IMG/VR virus record: IMGVR_UViG_2917855067_000007
DNA length: 53,826 bases
Strand: one strand, 5' to 3'
From: a virus
Lineage: Duplodnaviria; Heunggongvirae; Uroviricota; Caudoviricetes
The notes under the pieces were generated by a model. That model was given only the letters and a program-made list of their open reading frames with translations, had not been told where the DNA came from and searched no databases. Made by a program: the position numbers and the translations under genes. Every line of letters begins with the position of its first letter. Position 1 is the stretch's first letter. Shown piece after piece: positions 41,338-52,458 of the stretch.

Positions 41338-41594
41338 AAATTTACCTTATTGTTATAACCAAAGGAATTATAAAGTAAAAAAAGTTCACTATCACTAGCC
41401 ATTAACGACATCAATTTCAGAGAAACATGGTACTCATTTCCACAAATTTGACACAAGTCATTTTCATCTACATATTCCATCATACTTGATGCATATGTTA
41501 TTGAAGCCTCTATCCTATCCGTTCATAATAGCAATAGTTACCCGGGTGATAGTACCTCTATGATTACTCGTCTTTCTGATTGATTGGATTAAAT

Positions 41595-41786
41595 ATGCGC
41601 GCCAAAATTTATCAACTTTCGTTATGGATATTTATTTCGTTTCTAGCGATCTATGCCTTTATTATCTATAAAGGTTCTTATATTGGAGTAGCATTGCATC
41701 AAATTGCTTGGATCATCATTATTGCCTCTGGCTTGATTGCTAGGCTAACTAAACCAAAGCAAAAACCAATTTCGTCCAATAATTAG
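41595..41786 (+). CDS. small 2-TM membrane protein
   Basis: 63 aa from ATG at 41595; two hydrophobic helices then a basic tail; divergent from the lipoprotein operon. Confidence 0.35.
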   Translation: MRAKIYQLSLWIFISFLAIYAFIIYKGSYIGVALHQIAWIIIIASGLIARLTKPKQKPISSNN

Positions 41787-41823
41787 ACATGTATTAAAAA
41801 AATGATATTTTTATGTACATAGT

Positions 41824-43827: not shown

Positions 43828-44373
43828 TCATATCGCCCCCAGCATGGTGGTGACCATCGCCATCAATGGACCAGCCAGATCCGGGTCCACACGAAACATC
43901 GACACAATGCCTTCACTCATCTCCTTCAGTTTCTGGTGGCGTGGCGCGTTGAGAATGACAGCCTGTTTTGCTTCACTGAGTTCCTTTTCCATTTCAGCCA
44001 GCCGAGCCATGAAGCTATCCTGCTTAACCAGGTAACCGCGATATTCCAGCGGTAGTACCGCCAGAATTGCCGGGGTCAGTTCACGCACGTTATTTCGGTA
44101 TTTTTCAGAATCGAATTTGTTATCGAGGAAGCGGAACAGCTTCTGGCGTGCACGGCTGACATCATCAGGGAAATCGATGGTGCCGCCGCCCTGCTCCCGA
44201 TACTCATTCACAATGAGTGCGGCAACAACATCCTGATTATCTGCAGCCGACCAGGCGCGAACGGCATCACGGATTTTTTCGTGGCCTGGCACCTGTTTTG
44301 TTTGAGAACGATTTATCACCGCAGTCGGGCTAAATCCGCTAGTCTGTTGGTATGTAAGTGGTTGCATAGTCAT
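43828..44373 (-). CDS. regulatory protein in the cII position
   Basis: 181 aa between cro-like gene and O; no lambda CII similarity; family not identified. Confidence 0.35.
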   Translation of the reverse strand: MTMQPLTYQQTSGFSPTAVINRSQTKQVPGHEKIRDAVRAWSAADNQDVVAALIVNEYREQGGGTIDFPDDVSRARQKLFRFLDNKFDSEKYRNNVRELTPAILAVLPLEYRGYLVKQDSFMARLAEMEKELSEAKQAVILNAPRHQKLKEMSEGIVSMFRVDPDLAGPLMAMVTTMLGAI

Positions 44374-44397
44374 TGCCTTATCAGTTAACGCCGCAGT

Positions 44398-44628
44398 TTA
44401 GGCGGCAGAATTACTCGCGTTAAACAATGGTGCGAGGTCGGGACGAATATCTGCTGGTTTAATCTTTCCACCAGTGGCTGAGACAATTTTCATTACATAG
44501 CGGGCATCAATTCCGCCACCGTGTAGCCAACGCCAAACAGTGGGTTGGGCTACACCGCATAGATCTGCCAGTCGTTTTTGACTACCTGTAATACTGATTG
44601 CGAGTTGAATGGTTTGATTTGTCATCAT
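44398..44628 (-). CDS. cro: Cro-like HTH repressor (YdaS-like)
   Basis: 76 aa; HTH SQKRLADLCGVAQPTVWRW; divergent from cI. Confidence 0.7.
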   Translation of the reverse strand: MMTNQTIQLAISITGSQKRLADLCGVAQPTVWRWLHGGGIDARYVMKIVSATGGKIKPADIRPDLAPLFNASNSAA

Positions 44629-44631
44629 CAA

Positions 44632-44735
44632 TTCCTATTGGTATTGCAATGAATGGATAATAGCAATGCGTATTAATCCAAGCAATAGCAAAACGTGTTT
44701 TGACCATCAATACGCAAGCGTATAAATTAAAACTT
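44632..44735. promoter_or_regulatory. OR region with divergent pR and pRM
   Basis: minus strand: TTGCTT, 17 nt, TATTAT (pR); plus strand: TTGACC...TATAAA ending a few nt before the cI ATG (leaderless-like); palindrome ATTGCAAT and AATAGCAAT-type motifs. Confidence 0.5.
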
Positions 44736-45428
44736 ATGAAAAAAGAAACTCTTGCTGATCGCTTAAACCTAGCGATGGAACAATCTGGAATGTCTCAAGG
44801 CGCTCTTGCAAAGGCGTCTGGCGTAGCTCAACCCACAATCTGGAGACTGACAAGCGGCAACGCGCGCGGCTCAACAAAAATTGTTGAAATAGCTAATGCA
44901 TTGGGTGTTCGAACAGAGTGGCTCTCATCAGGCATAGGCCCGATGAGAAATGACGGTCAACAATCAGGGAAGCCTGCTGTCAACCATTCCAAATACTTCA
45001 AGATTGACGTTCTTGATATAGAAGTCAGTGCCGGGCCGGGTGTCATCAACCGTGAGTTTGTAGAAGTCCTACGCTCGGTTGAGTACTCGTTTGACGATGC
45101 TCGTCACATGTTCGATGGCAGGAAGGCGGAAAATATCCGCATCATTAACGTGCGTGGTGACAGCATGTCAGGAACTATCGAACCAGGTGATCTGCTGTTC
45201 GTTGATATCACGGTTAAATCTTTCGACGGTGATGGTATCTATGCGTTTCTGTATGACGACACAGCCCATGTAAAGCGCCTGCAAATGATGAAGGATAAGC
45301 TACTGGTCATCTCTGATAACAAAAGCTACTCACCGTGGGACCCGATCGAGAAAGACGAGATGAACCGGGTATTCATCTTCGGTAAGGTTATTGGGAGCAT
45401 GCCGCAGACGTATAGGAAACATGGTTAA
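44736..45428 (+). CDS. cI: CI repressor (XRE HTH plus LexA-like S24 peptidase domain)
   Basis: 230 aa; HTH MSQGALAKASGVAQPTIWRL; C-terminal GDSMSGTIEPGDLLFVD and K residue of S24 self-cleavage domain. Confidence 0.85.
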   Translation: MKKETLADRLNLAMEQSGMSQGALAKASGVAQPTIWRLTSGNARGSTKIVEIANALGVRTEWLSSGIGPMRNDGQQSGKPAVNHSKYFKIDVLDIEVSAGPGVINREFVEVLRSVEYSFDDARHMFDGRKAENIRIINVRGDSMSGTIEPGDLLFVDITVKSFDGDGIYAFLYDDTAHVKRLQMMKDKLLVISDNKSYSPWDPIEKDEMNRVFIFGKVIGSMPQTYRKHG

Positions 45429-45717
45429 TCCCATGTCTACATAATAGACAATATTAATGATGGCGATAGCCAGAGCTCTCGCCATGACACTTTATGTTGT
45501 ATTGAATTATGCCACCCTACCACTATATATAGTAAACAACTTTCCAGCACCCCTTACCAGAATAATATGCTACCTAATAAGGATAAACAGCAATAAATCC
45601 TATCGTTTTGTAAGTGACGGATGTACATAAAGTTATTAATATGTACTAACAGTTACCTTTCAGGTAAAATGCAAGCATTATACAACTGGTTATTTATACA
45701 GTTAAGGAGGGCATAAC

Positions 45718-46188
45718 ATGGCTTACTCAGCTGCAGCGGTTGCTAATGCCTTCATTGAAAAGGCTTTAAAGGGTAAGTTAAAGAATCTGACTCCAATGAA
45801 GCTCCAGAAGCTTCTTTTTTATACTCAATCATGGCATTTAAAGTTACGCGACAACACACCGCTTTTTGATGATCTTTTCGCCAGATGGAAATTCGGGCCT
45901 GTTATTCCACCGCTTTATCATATGTTGAAGAAGTATGGAGCAAACGAAATCACTGAAAAGATTAGCGTCATCTTAGAGTGTGATGGCGAATTAAAAAGAA
46001 ATCACCCCTACAATTCAAAAAGATGATCAAGAAGCTCAAGCTCTTATCAATAAAATCATCGAAGTATATGGGAAATTTTCAGGTACCGAACTGTCTAACT
46101 TAACACATGCGCCTGGTACAGCATGGAGCAAGGGAAGTGCAGATGGTGGCCCCATTTCTCATGAGGATATGGCGAAGCATATTCACTA
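45718..46188 (+). CDS. Panacea-domain (DUF4065) protein, reading frame interrupted in the deposited sequence
   Basis: AAGGAGG then ATG; N-terminal 102 aa (AYSAAAVANAFIEKA...LTPMKLQKLLFYTQSWHL...FGPVIPPLYHMLKKYG) stop at 46024-46026; C-terminal part continues in +1 frame to the TAA at 46186-46188. Confidence 0.55.
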
Positions 46189-46572
46189 ATGAAGTCGTTT
46201 GATAGCATATCTATACCCAGTGGCACAAATGTAGGCTCATCGACAGTATCAAGTGCCGAAGATGAGCCGCCAATTACAGAAAGAATATCCAGAGGTGACG
46301 ACCTCAATGCTCAAAAAGCGGCAGACGCCAAGTCAAACAGGCAACTTCGTGAGATATTGGCGGAAAAAGCGTACCGTGTCGTAAAAAAATCACTTTACGG
46401 ATGGGCTTTGTTTCTTTTCTTTCAAGGCTGGTTTTCTATCATTGGGATAAAGGTTTTTTCCGATAAGGTAGTTTTGGCTGTAACAACAGCTGTTACTCTT
46501 AATGTATTCGCTGCTTTTCTTGGTGTTATCAGGGGATTATTCCCTGCTGCCAGTAGAAAAGATAAAAGTTAA
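46189..46572 (+). CDS. membrane protein with two C-terminal TM helices, candidate toxin/effector
   Basis: 127 aa; ATG overlaps upstream stop (TAATG); polar N-terminus, then two hydrophobic helices. Confidence 0.5.
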   Translation: MKSFDSISIPSGTNVGSSTVSSAEDEPPITERISRGDDLNAQKAADAKSNRQLREILAEKAYRVVKKSLYGWALFLFFQGWFSIIGIKVFSDKVVLAVTTAVTLNVFAAFLGVIRGLFPAASRKDKS

Positions 46573-46599
46573 CCCGGCCTCCGTGCCGGGTTTTCTTTT
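46573..46599 (+). terminator. rho-independent terminator ending the rex-slot operon
   Basis: hairpin cccggc-ctccgtg-ccggg followed by TTTTCTTTT. Confidence 0.75.
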
Positions 46600-46727
46600 G
46601 CCTCCCCTCATCACGCATATCGTCCTAAAAAACACCACAACCTCGCTTCAGTTATTGCTGTGCAATGCAAGTCACAAAATTAATTCTTTTTGCTATCAAA
46701 CATTTAATATCAAAACACATCAACCAA

Positions 46728-46780
46728 TAGCAATAAGTATTGATATCACCAATAGCAATAGCTATTATCACCATATCGCA
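46728..46780. promoter_or_regulatory. OL operator region
   Basis: ccaatagcaata twice plus perfect palindrome aatagctatt, same motif family as OR. Confidence 0.45.
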
Positions 46781-46966
46781 ACAACACAACGATACGGCAA
46801 CCACCTGATTCACCGTTGCGATGACCGCTTAGATCCGCAGCTTGAATTTCAGCAGGCTCCGGGGAGTGCGAGGGGTGAAGCGGACGCGTGAACGTCGGTG
46901 TGACCAGCTGAAATCAACTCAACTCAACACTTCATACCTCAGTCGCTTCAACGAGGCGGCTTAGTT

Positions 46967-47257
46967 ATGACAACCGGCGGCCATCCACCGCCTGAATACG
47001 CGCAGAAGTCTCTATATGTTCAGCAGCCCAGCTTACGGGCAGGAGTTTTTATGGTTCATCAACATTACGGAACGCAGACCGTTAATCGCGGTGCGGTCAT
47101 GCCAGGAATGCTGGTCAAACACAAAGATGGTACCTGGACTGCCTCAGCTAATTTACGCGGACGGCTTTATCTGCATCGCGGCATCGAGCGCACTTATACC
47201 CGTGATTTGCTCGTGGAAGTTTTTCTCGACGGACGCGGTAACGGCCTGAATCACTAA
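46967..47257 (+). CDS. hypothetical protein, first ORF of the leftward operon
   Basis: 96 aa, ATG with GAGG upstream; not Arg-rich, so not N-like. Confidence 0.3.
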
Positions 47258-47332
47258 TCCCCTTTCCTGTTTTCCTAATCAGCCTGGCATTTCGCGGGCG
47301 ATATTTTCACAGCCATTTTCAGGAGTTCAGCC

Positions 47333-47629
47333 ATGAACGCTTATTACATTCAGGATCGTCTTGAGGCTCAGAGCTGGGCGCGTCACTACCAGCAGATCGC
47401 CCGTGAAGAGAAAGAGGCAGAACTGGCAGACGACATGGAAAAAGGCCTGCCCCAGCACCTGTTTGAATCGCTATGCATCGATCATTTGCAACGCCACGGG
47501 GTCAGCAAAAAAGCCATTTCTCGTGCATTTGATGACGATGTTGAGTTTCAGGAGCGCATGGCAGAACACATCCGGTACTTGGTTGAAACCATTGCTCACC
47601 ACCAGGTTGATATTGATTCAGAGGTATAA
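47333..47629 (+). CDS. gam: Gam (RecBCD inhibitor), short form
   Basis: 98 aa [38 protein letters not shown]... matches lambda Gam. Confidence 0.9.
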
Positions 47630-47634
47630 AACGA

Positions 47635-48420
47635 ATGAGTACTGCACTCGCAACGCTGGCAGGGAAGCTGGCTGAACGTGTCGGCATGGATTCTGTCGAC
47701 CCACAGGAACTGATCACCACTCTTCGCCAGACGGCATTTAAAGGTGATGCCAGCGATGCGCAGTTCATCGCATTGCTGATCGTCGCCAACCAGTACGGTC
47801 TTAATCCGTGGACGAAAGAAATTTACGCCTTTCCTGATAAGCAGAACGGCATCGTTCCGGTGGTGGGCGTTGATGGCTGGTCCCGCATCATCAATGAAAA
47901 CCAGCAGTTTGATGGCATGGACTTTGAGCAGGACAACGAATTCTGTACATGCCGGATTTACCGCAAGGACCGTAATCATCCGATCTGCGTTACCGAGTGG
48001 ATGGATGAATGCCGCCGCGAACCATTCAAAACCCGCGAAGGCAGAGAAATCACGGGGCCGTGGCAGTCGCATCCCAAACGGATGTTACGGCATAAAGCCA
48101 TGATTCAGTGTGCCCGTCTGGCCTTCGGATTTGCGGGTATCTATGACAAGGATGAAGCCGAGCGCATTGTCGAAAATACCGCATACACTGCAGAACGTCA
48201 GCCGGAACGCGACATCACTCCGGTTAACGATGAAACCATGCAGGAGATTAACACTCTGCTGATCGCCCTGGATAAAACATGGGATGGCGACTTATTGCCG
48301 CTCTGTTCCCAGATATTTCGCCGCGACATTCGTGCATCGTCAGAATTGACACAGGCCGAAGCAGTGAAAGCTCTTGGATTCCTGAAACAAAAAGCCACTG
48401 AGCAGAAGGTGGCAGCATGA
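47635..48420 (+). CDS. bet: Bet (Red-beta recombinase)
   Basis: 261 aa, lambda Bet-like. Confidence 0.95.
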
Positions 48421-49097: not shown

Positions 49098-49252
49098 AGC
49101 ATCCTCACGATAATATCCGGGTAGGCGCGATCACTTTCGTCTACTCCGTTACAAAGCGAGGCTGGGTATTTCCCGGCCTTTCTGTTATCCGAAATCCACT
49201 GAAAGCACAGCGGCTGGCTGAGGCGATAAATAATAAACGGGGGGCTGTATGA
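49094..49252 (+). CDS. hypothetical small protein, 52 aa
   Basis: ATG overlaps exo stop; stop overlaps the methyltransferase start; not in ORF track. Confidence 0.35.
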
Positions 49253-50098: not shown

Positions 50099-50120
50099 AC
50101 ATGAAAAGCAAAATCATCAG

Positions 50121-50141
50121 GGAGCTACAGGCTCCTTTTTT
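50121..50141 (+). terminator. possible weak terminator inside the early-left operon
   Basis: 5 bp stem ggagc-tacag-gctcc then TTTTTT. Confidence 0.35.
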
Positions 50142-50196
50142 ATTATTCGCATTCACCCTCAAGCGTATTAACCAACAATTCAGGGATTAATGAAAG

Positions 50197-51006: not shown

Positions 51007-51328
51007 GGCCTGTCAGTTTCTCAAGATATCCAGACCTACCGCTACCAACTGGATACGAACAGGCCGCCTACAGGCAACACGCAAAGACCCCACTAAACCA
51101 AAATCTCCTTACCTCACAACGCGACAAGCCTGCATTGCGGCGCTTCAGTCTCCGCTGCATACTATCAAGGTGAGCGCGGGTGATGGCATAACAGAGGAAA
51201 GAAAATGTCACTCTTCCGCAGAAGTGAAATATGGTACGCCAGTTTCACATTGCCGAACGGTAAAAGATTTAAACAGTCTCTTGGAACAAAGGACAAAAGG
51301 CAGGCAACAGAGCTCCATGACAAGCTAA
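50978..51328 (+). CDS. xis: excisionase-like DNA-binding protein
   Basis: ATG at 50978 with AGAGG upstream; [29 protein letters not shown]; overlaps the int start, so the real 3' end is uncertain. Confidence 0.5.
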
Positions 51329-52368
51329 AGGCTGAAGCATGGCGGGTCAGCAAACTTGGTGAAATACCTGATATGACGTTCGAGGAAGCGTGTGTCAGGT
51401 GGCTTGAAGAGAAAGCACATAAAAAATCACTGGACGATGACAAAAGCCGGATCGGATTCTGGCTTCAACATTTCGCAGGGATGCAACTAAGAGACATTAC
51501 TGAATCAAAAATTTATTCAGCAATTCAGAAAATGACGAACCGGCGTCATGAGGAAAACTGGAAACTCAGGGCAGAAGCATGCAGAAAAAAAGGGAAACCT
51601 GTTCCAGAATACACGCCAAAACCAGCGTCCGTTGCAACGAAGGCAACGCATCTTTCATTTATAAAGGCCCTGCTAAGAGCCGCAGAGCGTGAATGGAAAA
51701 TGCTGGATAAGGCACCAATTATTAAAGTGCCTCAACCAAAGAATAAACGGATCCGCTGGCTGGAGCCTCATGAAGCACAAAGGCTGATTGATGAATGTCC
51801 GGAGCCATTAAAGTCTGTTGTTGAATTTGCACTGGCAACAGGTTTAAGACGCTCGAACATCATCAACCTTGAATGGCAACAAATAGACATGCAGCGCCGG
51901 GTGGCATGGATAAACCCGGAAGAGAGTAAATCAAACCGCGCAATTGGCGTTGCGCTGAATGATACTGCATGTCGCGTATTGAAAAAACAAATAGGGAATC
52001 ATCACCGTTGGGTATTTGTGTATAAGGAAAGCTGTACCAAACCAGACGGAACGAAAGCGCCAACAGTAAGGAAGATGCGGTATGACGCAAACACAGCCTG
52101 GAAAGCGGCGCTGAGACGAGCTGGTATTGATGATTTCAGATTTCACGACTTGAGACACACCTGGGCAAGTTGGCTGGTTCAAGCCGGAGTCCCGTTGTCA
52201 GTGTTACAGGAAATGGGTGGCTGGGAGTCTATCGAAATGGTTCGTCGATATGCTCACCTCGCGCCTAATCACCTTACCGAACACGCACGGCAAATAGACT
52301 CGATTCTGAACCCATCGGTCCCAAATTTGTCCCAGTCAAAAAATAAGGAAGGTACTAATGATGTGTAA
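51205..52368 (+). CDS. int: tyrosine integrase of the lambdoid prophage
   Basis: 387 aa; C-terminal catalytic R...[10 protein letters not shown]...Y; ends 15 bp from the tRNA 3' end. Confidence 0.9.
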
Positions 52369-52379
52369 CTTATTGATTT

Positions 52380-52428
52380 AAATGGTGCCGATAATAGGAG
52401 TCGAACCTACGACCTTCGCATTACGAAT
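52380..52428. repeat. attR core within thrW
   Basis: 49 bp identical to 6396-6444. Confidence 0.85.
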
Positions 52429-52458
52429 GCGCTGCTCTACCAACTGAGCTATATCGGC
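52383..52458 (-). tRNA. thrW: tRNA-Thr (anticodon CGU)
   Basis: reverse complement gccgatatagctcagttggtagagcagcgcattcgtaatgcgaaggtcgtaggttcgactcctattatcggcacca; cloverleaf with CGT anticodon and CCA end. Confidence 0.9.

Follow-up and report, generated by a model that had tools for sequence, protein, structure and literature searches.

In the leader of the early-left operon of a lambda-like prophage (IMG/VR record IMGVR_UViG_2917855067_000007; 53,826 nucleotides (nt), analysed over its full length and called the window below), we identified a conserved structured RNA element of 101 nt directly behind the promoter PL, at the place where other lambdoid phages carry the antitermination signals put or nut. 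N is absent from the phage, and the element shows no homology to put, to nut or to the families in Rfam. Based on its position in the put/nut slot, we propose that it may be a cis-acting antitermination RNA of a new sequence family, a reading to which we give a probability of about 45%. The leader segment 46776-46925 is present in 2210 of 5426 complete E. coli genomes (~40%), including those of strain 536 and O157:H7, and among the 15 matches listed no annotated feature lies under it.

The original prediction, made from the sequence of the window, had described a GC-rich segment with potential long-range pairing between the OL operators and gam. Positions 46800-46920 are indeed GC-rich (57.9%, compared with 35% just upstream and 50.5% in the whole window). 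The covariance model of the element, R2, matched the window once, on the PL side only, and the next best score was 10.6 bits (Table 1). R2 had no match in KO-TP1, mEp237, lambda, HK022, HK639, CobraSix, S9-5 or phiEt88, so the leaders of these phages do not belong to the element family. Three clades of the element are known, all 101 nt long and in the same register. Clade 2 was found with nhmmer: when a clade-1 profile was searched against all loci gathered (given L numbers here), the sole match was a diverged copy in L197, and a pattern scan of IMG/VR with clade 1 excluded gave 15 loci of this clade. Clade 3 is represented by Scandinavium hiltneri, the one true match among the GTDB species representatives; three other matches, in GC-rich genomes, were due to chance. 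No further clade was found in IMG/VR with the exclusion pattern, and metagenomes gave two minor variants only.

Differences between the clades are concentrated in the stems P2 and P3, and the blocks between the stems, AUGACCGCUUAGA, GGGGAGUGCGAGGGGUG and the conserved tail GUGUGACCAGCUGAAA, are invariant. In P2, one base pair occurs as A-U, C-G or G.U, two pairs occur as G-C or A-U, and one changes from C-G to U.G; in P3, one pair occurs as A-U or G-C, accompanied by wobble changes. With the proposed partners, 89.8% of the cells were paired, compared with 26-45% when the partners were slid by 1-3 columns, and both sides had changed in 4 pairs. RNAalifold and single-sequence minimum-free-energy folding recovered P2 and P3 alike in all three clades. 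The compensatory and wobble changes fit only the + (PL-sense) strand. RNA folding had been proposed as a check on the original prediction; by folding energy, neither the leader (z = -1.37) nor the element rose above chance, and the conserved structure emerged from covariation between clades. The structure is therefore supported by conservation and covariation and not by its stability. Within clade 1, the alignment was too shallow for a pairwise covariation search to be informative. As for the long-range pairing, TTTCAGCAGG (46847-56) is complementary to CCAGCTGAAA (46904-13) at 9 of 10 positions, but this pairing competes with P2: CAGCAGG is used in the better-supported local hairpin, and only the part contributed by the loop, UUUCAG/CUGAAA, survives, as a possible loop-tail pseudoknot.

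The position of the element carries the argument for its role. The same 58-nt 5' leader (...GCCAGCGGCG) is found in HK639 and CobraSix, where putL follows it, in L197 and L218, where a clade-2 element follows it, and in Enterobacter phage ENT1, where the slot is filled by a boxA-like CUGCUCAUUAAGAA cassette. HK639, L197, L218 and ENT1, though not CobraSix, also have the 3' flank TTACCAGCAGCTCTTTGCGAGGGGCTGACGG in common, and only the cassette in the middle differs. In phi80, the same 5' leader (CCATCGAAACGAAACATCGACAGCTGAGCGAAGTTAGCCAGCGGCG) leads straight into the boxA and core of the annotated nutL, with N ~290 nt downstream of the nutL core. With putL, nutL and boxA-like cassettes at the same slot, every identifiable occupant is thus an antitermination signal. 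The put model described below matched 16 other lambdoid loci, none of which bears the element, and no homologue of lambda N or phi80 N was found in the element-bearing loci examined. The element stands behind at least 10 distinct promoter/operator clusters and ahead of 5 different downstream contexts, and its association is therefore with PL, not with one repressor or one gene. Clade-1 elements are followed by kil and clade-2 elements by other genes; in L220, a clade-2 locus, the element is separated from kil-gam by two strong intrinsic terminators, and no N was detected with PHROGs.

Table 1. Features of the PL region and early-left operon (window coordinates)
Feature	Position	Strand	Basis or detail
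Intrinsic terminator closing the cI/'rex-slot' operon, AACCCGGCCTCCGTGCCGGGTT + TTCTTTTG	46571..46600	+	Terminator scan
OL operator repeats ACCAATAGCAAT, overlapping PL	46723-34 and 46748-59 (span 46723..46759)	.	Repeats common to the OR region, 44631-44707
PL promoter, sigma-70	46740..46768	+	-35 TTGATA 46740-45, 17-nt spacer, -10 TATTAT 46763-68; promoter scan 10/12
5' leader segment, C-rich, G-poor	46775..46816	+	5'-terminal hairpin AUCG 46775-78 / CGAU 46790-93
Conserved structured RNA element, 101 nt	46817..46917	+	Covariance model R2, 125.4 bits
Hairpin P2, loop AAUUUCAG	46834-44 with 46853-63	+	Covariation, RNAalifold, minimum free energy
Possible loop-tail pseudoknot, UUUCAG with CUGAAA	46847-52 with 46908-13	+	100% paired
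Conserved G-rich linker	46864-79	+	Conservation
Hairpin P3	46880-86 with 46893-99	+	Covariation, RNAalifold, minimum free energy
Arg-rich 40-amino-acid open reading frame (MNFSRLRGVRGVKRTRERRCDQL..., ...RLRGVRGVKRTRERRCDQ...)	46842..46964	+	Open reading frame list; rejected as a gene
(TCAAC)3 C-rich linker	46914..46928	+	Third copy (46914-18) in 5/66 unique sequences, two copies in the others
Pan-lambdoid non-coding module	46929..47011	+	CAUACC, hairpin 1, UUAGUUAUGA, hairpin 2, conserved GCGCAGAAGUCU (47000-11)
Hairpin 1 with outer helix, ATG 46967 buried	46932-46970	+	Compensatory double changes in 7 pairs
Hairpin 2, GGCGG-CCAUCCA-CCGCC, invariant	46976-92	+	Conservation
kil, KilR-type cell-division inhibitor, 68 amino acids	47051..47257	+	phrog_294, E=1.2e-38; Shine-Dalgarno AGGAG 47041-45
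Strong intrinsic terminator in the PL operon, AGGGAGCTACAGGCTCCTT + TTTTATTATT	50119..50147	+	Terminator scan

On the proposed reading, the element would be transcribed ~40 nt after the PL start; its two hairpins and conserved single-stranded blocks would fold, possibly with the loop-to-tail pseudoknot, and would render the transcribing RNA polymerase resistant to termination, presumably without a phage protein. This would be a job like that of N-nutL in lambda and phi80 and of putL in HK022 and HK639. With less confidence, we consider it possible that the element is a self-sufficient antiterminator RNA, unrelated to put in sequence, which modifies E. coli RNA polymerase in cis via the two hairpins and the pseudoknot and is one of several interchangeable cassettes (N-nut, put, boxA-type and the element itself) swapped at a fixed slot behind PL.

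put RNA acts in cis without phage proteins, via the beta' zinc-binding domain of RNA polymerase, and suppresses both intrinsic and Rho-dependent terminators. Like putL, the antiterminator RNA of HK022 (King et al. 1996 Cell 87:893; structure in PMC9378689), and like putL of HK639, the element lies just after PL in an N-less lambdoid phage and combines two stem-loops with conserved unpaired nucleotides. The likeness to HK639 extends to an identical slot between identical flanks and to a copy on the PL side only: HK639 has an annotated putL-like RNA, and no second put match was found in its examined PR-side region. However, the element has no sequence or covariance-model similarity to putL, is ~100 nt long where put is ~70, may have a loop-tail pseudoknot, and lacks a second copy of the putR type. 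The contact with the beta' zinc-binding domain and the effect on termination are properties of put and, for the element, hypothetical. nutL of lambda and phi80 occupies the same place in the PL leader, whereas the phage carrying the element has no boxA, no boxB-type hairpin shared with PR and no N gene. Rrn-type boxA and RfaH/ops are host-factor-based signals of processive antitermination in leaders, and the boxA-like cassette of ENT1 occupies the same slot, but the PL and PR leaders of the window and their surroundings match neither boxA nor ops.

Several points weigh against an antitermination role. That cassettes can be exchanged at one slot does not mean that they have the same function. 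No strong terminator stands between PL and kil-gam-bet-exo in this phage, so these genes do not obviously need the element. N proteins are very diverse, which leaves room for a small, non-homologous protein partner. The covariation comes from three clades only, with ~5-7 independent events, and the shuffle control ignores relatedness; in the pseudoknot there are two one-sided G.U changes and no double compensatory change. The folding z-scores of the element (+0.71, -1.43 and -1.27) are unremarkable. Finally, the conserved blocks were not met in a literature search that did not cover King et al. 2011 (J Bacteriol 193:5784), a paper that possibly describes related elements.

The element might instead have another role in the leader, such as mRNA stabilisation or processing, control of translation, Rho-dependent attenuation of the PL operon, or service as the precursor of a trans-acting small RNA (sRNA), in a phage that needs no early antitermination, like lambda nin. 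We regard such a role as somewhat unlikely. In its favor, no strong intrinsic terminator was found in the stretch from PL to exo or, on the minus strand, in that from PR to Q, and the C-rich, G-poor tracts flanking the element have a rut-like look. A known product of the lambda PL operon is the Hfq-bound sRNA PreS, which ends at tL2a (bioRxiv 10.1101/2024.10.31.621285), and the hairpins at 46932-92 could supply the 3' end of an sRNA here; PreS/tL2a itself lies at a different site from the element. However, there is no terminator or U-tract directly after the element to define an sRNA, and its fixed position relative to PL across 5 downstream contexts speaks against gene-specific control of translation. 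In addition, what takes the place of the element in other phages is not arbitrary sequence but put and nut cassettes, and in clade-2 phages, which lack N, the element is followed by two strong terminators.

The distribution of terminators in the window bears on the same question. The only strong one in the PL operon (50119-50147) is far downstream, between the phrog_303 gene and a dksA-like gene and ahead of xis and int; these two genes could be expressed from PL only if transcription passed through it. An absence of early-left antitermination, which the original prediction also allowed, is possible for this phage. Since this terminator lies in the PL operon and none lies between PR and Q, a device present on the PL side only fits the window. 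The C-rich, G-poor tracts of the leader would presumably be exposed to Rho if the element did not act as an antiterminator. A second terminator-like hairpin occurs in the PL operon at 49158-49180 on the + strand.

Alternatively, the element could be a nut-like loading site for a protein antiterminator, encoded by the phage or the host and unrelated in sequence to known N. The element is placed where nutL of phi80 sits, its long invariant single-stranded blocks (GGGGAGUGCGAGGGGUG, GUGUGACCAGCUGAAA and a repeated UGACC motif) are of a kind that a protein could read, and the PL operons contain several small open reading frames (ORFs) without assigned function. We nevertheless consider this alternative improbable: boxA is missing, the PR operon lacks a second site, and the element is not linked to any conserved candidate ORF, the next genes being different in clades 1 and 2. 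For boxA (CGCUCUUA / UGCUCUUUAACAA), no match to GCTCTTTA with at most one mismatch was found near the PL or PR leader, and the total count was that expected by chance. The leader and the PR transcript have no common repeat except the operators, and so no common boxB-type hairpin. For ops (GGCGGTAGNNTG), the + strand of the leader had no match with at most two mismatches, and counts were at the chance level; a lone ops-like match lies at 46981-92 on the minus strand. The nut of mEp021, with its protein Gp17, was also considered and is unrelated to the element.

The original prediction stated that no Arg-rich, N-like ORF is present. An Arg-rich ORF of 40 codons does exist, overlapping the element (Table 1), and it could be taken for a small N-like antiterminator peptide. 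Its KRTRERRCDQ resembles the arginine-rich motif of lambda N, TRRRERRAEKQ; the codons correspond in the same frame (CGT GAA CGT CGG against CGC GAA CGT CGC), in which neither of the two most frequent polymorphisms (46859 and 46880) alters the encoded amino acid. Even so, this explanation is very improbable. The ORF begins with TTG without a Shine-Dalgarno sequence, and after the only in-frame ATG (46821) a TAG comes three codons on, at 46830. Of 66 unique relatives, 61 are put out of frame by a 5-nt indel at 46914-18, and singleton frameshifts occur besides. The frame contains TGA and TAA stops in clades 2 and 3, where the motif becomes *RAMES. The motif coincides with hairpin P3 and is thus constrained as RNA, and BLASTP gave no alignment of the ORF to lambda N. 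Neither this ORF nor any other in the PL operon matched an N-family protein by Pfam, PHROGs, tblastn or BLASTP. Because the Arg-rich ORF is non-coding and these searches were negative, the absence of N stands. The inference of N-independence is borne out to this extent: the phage has no N-family gene, no boxA and no boxB pair.

The original prediction also placed a 96-amino-acid non-basic ORF between the leader and gam-bet-exo. The three recombination genes are where it placed them, and the ORF is Kil, but its start was set too early: the reading from 46967 is an over-extension. The match to phrog_294 spans positions 4-80 of 83, and the gene lies upstream of gam, as expected of the Kil family of KilR-type FtsZ/division inhibitors. 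Kil is a 207-nt coding sequence in the annotations of phage 4A7 and of RefSeq genomes, and the relative L072 has kept kil and lost everything upstream of 46995. Based on the AGGAG at 47041-45, on the 68-amino-acid annotation and on the homology of L072 from 46995, Kil probably starts at ATG 47051. The untranslated leader would therefore be ~275 nt long, not ~190 nt, and contains no credible ORF between PL and kil.

The leader is kept whole in 78 of 80 IMG/VR loci with identical Kil, and positions 46780-47050 vary by less than 5% per column among relatives. Its 5' segment, 46775-46816, changes with the immunity type and is related to the sequences with which PL transcripts begin in put and nut phages (ATCGAAACAACACAGCG in S9-5; CCATCGAAACGAAACATCGA in HK639, CobraSix and phi80); homology with L068, L038 and L041 starts only at 46809. 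Upstream, variation among relatives peaks in the operator/promoter zone (25-35% per column), in keeping with what immunity specificity would lead one to expect. The OL-like operator repeats announced by the original prediction behind the terminator of the 'rex slot' were found, together with PL; the terminator is bidirectional, has an 8-base-pair stem with 6 GC pairs, and is kept in relatives. From the promoter sequence, PL transcription would start near A46775.

That the early-left RNA might act as in HK022 was likewise part of the original prediction, with a search for put or nut elements as a check. A conserved structured RNA does occupy the putL/nutL slot, which is circumstantial but specific support for an RNA-based device; the search itself was negative, with no put match above 8.6 bits and no boxA near the leaders. 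Our put model, R1, was trained on putL and putR of HK022 and on putL of HK639, S9-5, phiEt88 and CobraSix. It recovered the training sequences at 93-103 bits and the untrained putR of phiEt88 at 56.7 bits. With filters off, R1 found nothing in 46775-47050, and its best match in the window (E ~0.9) was inside cI. The put signature motifs AACGGCGCGAC, GGCGGGYUCAGGA and CGGCAAU are absent from the leader. As in put phages, the element begins close to the promoter, ~42 nt after the predicted PL start; a second copy, corresponding to putR in the PR operon, was not found, R2 matching the window only once. A second put copy is not universal, since the examined stretches of HK639, CobraSix and S9-5 contain no putR. 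Despite the common position after PL, the two stem-loops and the N-less phage, there is hardly any chance, given the blank put model and the missing signature motifs, that the element belongs to the HK022 put family as a diverged member.

Other known RNA families gave no better account of the element. A scan of 44000-48000 against Rfam 15 (E<=10) returned only terminator-driven noise at 46509-46599, and the clade-2 locus L220 (4400-5900) had no Rfam match. The 5' block of the element (GAUGACCGCUUAGAUCC) locally resembles AAUGACCUGUU(A/U)AGACCC of phi80 and KO-TP1, but the covariance model gives no support to this resemblance.

Immediately downstream of the element and its linker lies a second RNA structure, the pan-lambdoid hairpin module at 46929-47011. 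Its folding is significantly stable (z = -4.47), and 96 unique versions are present in IMG/VR. The module is found in HK225, KO-TP1, CobraSix, HK639 and S9-5; among the loci gathered, it lies at 3003-3070 in L088, 3003-3080 in L089, 3371-3450 in L087, 5145-5240 in L084, 2503-2570 in L085 and ~2525-2480 (minus strand) in L211. It is non-coding, because the spacing from ATGA to GGCGG varies (6, 8 or 9 nt). Elsewhere it is usually located right after a strong intrinsic terminator, upstream of genes of the kil/cIII region; in the phage family of the window it is preceded by the new element and a (UCAAC)2-3 linker. Positions 46929-46970 (CAUACC, hairpin, UUAUG) are homologous to CATACCAATAACGCTTCACTCGAGGCGTTTTTCGTTATG in the ea10-cIII intergenic region of lambda, which is presumably the tL2b region. 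In lambda, however, the hairpin is followed by a U-run, and here by UUAGUUAUGA. The record of HK639 labels the region of hairpin 2 a terminator. The module may serve as a weak terminator, as a processing site or in translational control.

The slot behind PL holds further cassettes. In ENT1 (L234 1560-1745), the boxA-like CUGCUCAUUAAGAA is followed by ~150 nt of unassigned sequence. KO-TP1 (L089 2395-2600) has a nutL of the phi80 type, but the ORF at the position of N is unlike phi80 N. The corresponding region of phi80 is L235 1877-2060. These cassettes behind the same PL leader suggest a recombination hot spot for antitermination devices. In clade 2, ~550 nt after the element (L220 4680-5230; likewise in L213-L215, L217, L219, L222-L224, L228 and L233) contain no credible ORF. 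At its start, a strong Shine-Dalgarno sequence precedes a mini-ORF of three codons (ATG AAG CAC TAA); the stretch also includes ~45 nt (TTATCAGCTAGTTGGTGAGGTAATGGCTCACCAAGGCGACGACGG) that we take to resemble a 16S rRNA helix, although Rfam gave no match.

The prophage is attached at tRNA-Thr(CGU) (52383-52458) beside proA, with a P22-type integrase gene at 51205-52368. On the + strand, cI (44700-45428) is followed by two 'rex-slot' genes, the terminator, OL/PL, the leader and kil-gam-bet-exo ... xis-int. The minus strand carries, from PR, a YdaS-type cro, a YdaT-type cII-like gene, O, P, ren, nin genes, RusA and a 260-amino-acid Q. Identities in the PL operon were assigned with PHROGs. The prophage thus combines an immunity region of the Rac/YdaS-YdaT type with lambda-type O/P replication genes and Red recombination genes.

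In the 'rex slot' (45718-46572), an ORF with a SocA/Panacea domain (antitoxin-like) covers only the N-terminal half of its families (positions 1-64 of 113 in PF13274 and 6-87 of 195 in phrog_1281); since the reading appears to run on in another frame to ~46190, a frameshift is possible. It is followed by a 127-amino-acid protein with a hydrophobic C-terminal half (phrog_33656). The cargo of this slot is wholly different in relatives: SIR2 in O157:H7, and an ASCH-domain gene in 4A7 and strain 536. In the PR operon, a gap of ~490 base pairs (41338-41823) separates ren from phrog_12521, which has a lipoprotein-like N-terminus, and phrog_13877, both without assigned roles; the gap contains short ORFs only, some on the opposite strand, and no predicted minus-strand terminator. 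The HK639 record includes an 'M3-like RNA' (L084 351-410) on the PR transcript just 3' of the YdaT-type cII-like gene. In the window there is no intergenic room for an equivalent, because the cII-like gene and O overlap at 43828-43831.

put is a key model of how nascent RNA reprograms RNA polymerase and, to our knowledge, the single known family of RNA-only processive antitermination in enterobacterial phages. Even if the element is not an antiterminator, it is an unannotated, highly conserved structured leader RNA in ~2200 of 5426 complete E. coli genomes. If it is, it would be a second, unrelated RNA-only antiterminator and, at ~40% of complete genomes, the commonest RNA antiterminator in E. 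coli prophages; a comparison with put may then tell whether both make the same contact with the beta' zinc-binding domain or the element makes another contact. Early-left expression would also be explained, including that of excision functions, for very common N-less prophages of E. coli (for example in uropathogenic strain 536 and O157:H7), and a modular "antitermination slot" would be useful in the annotation of phage genomes.

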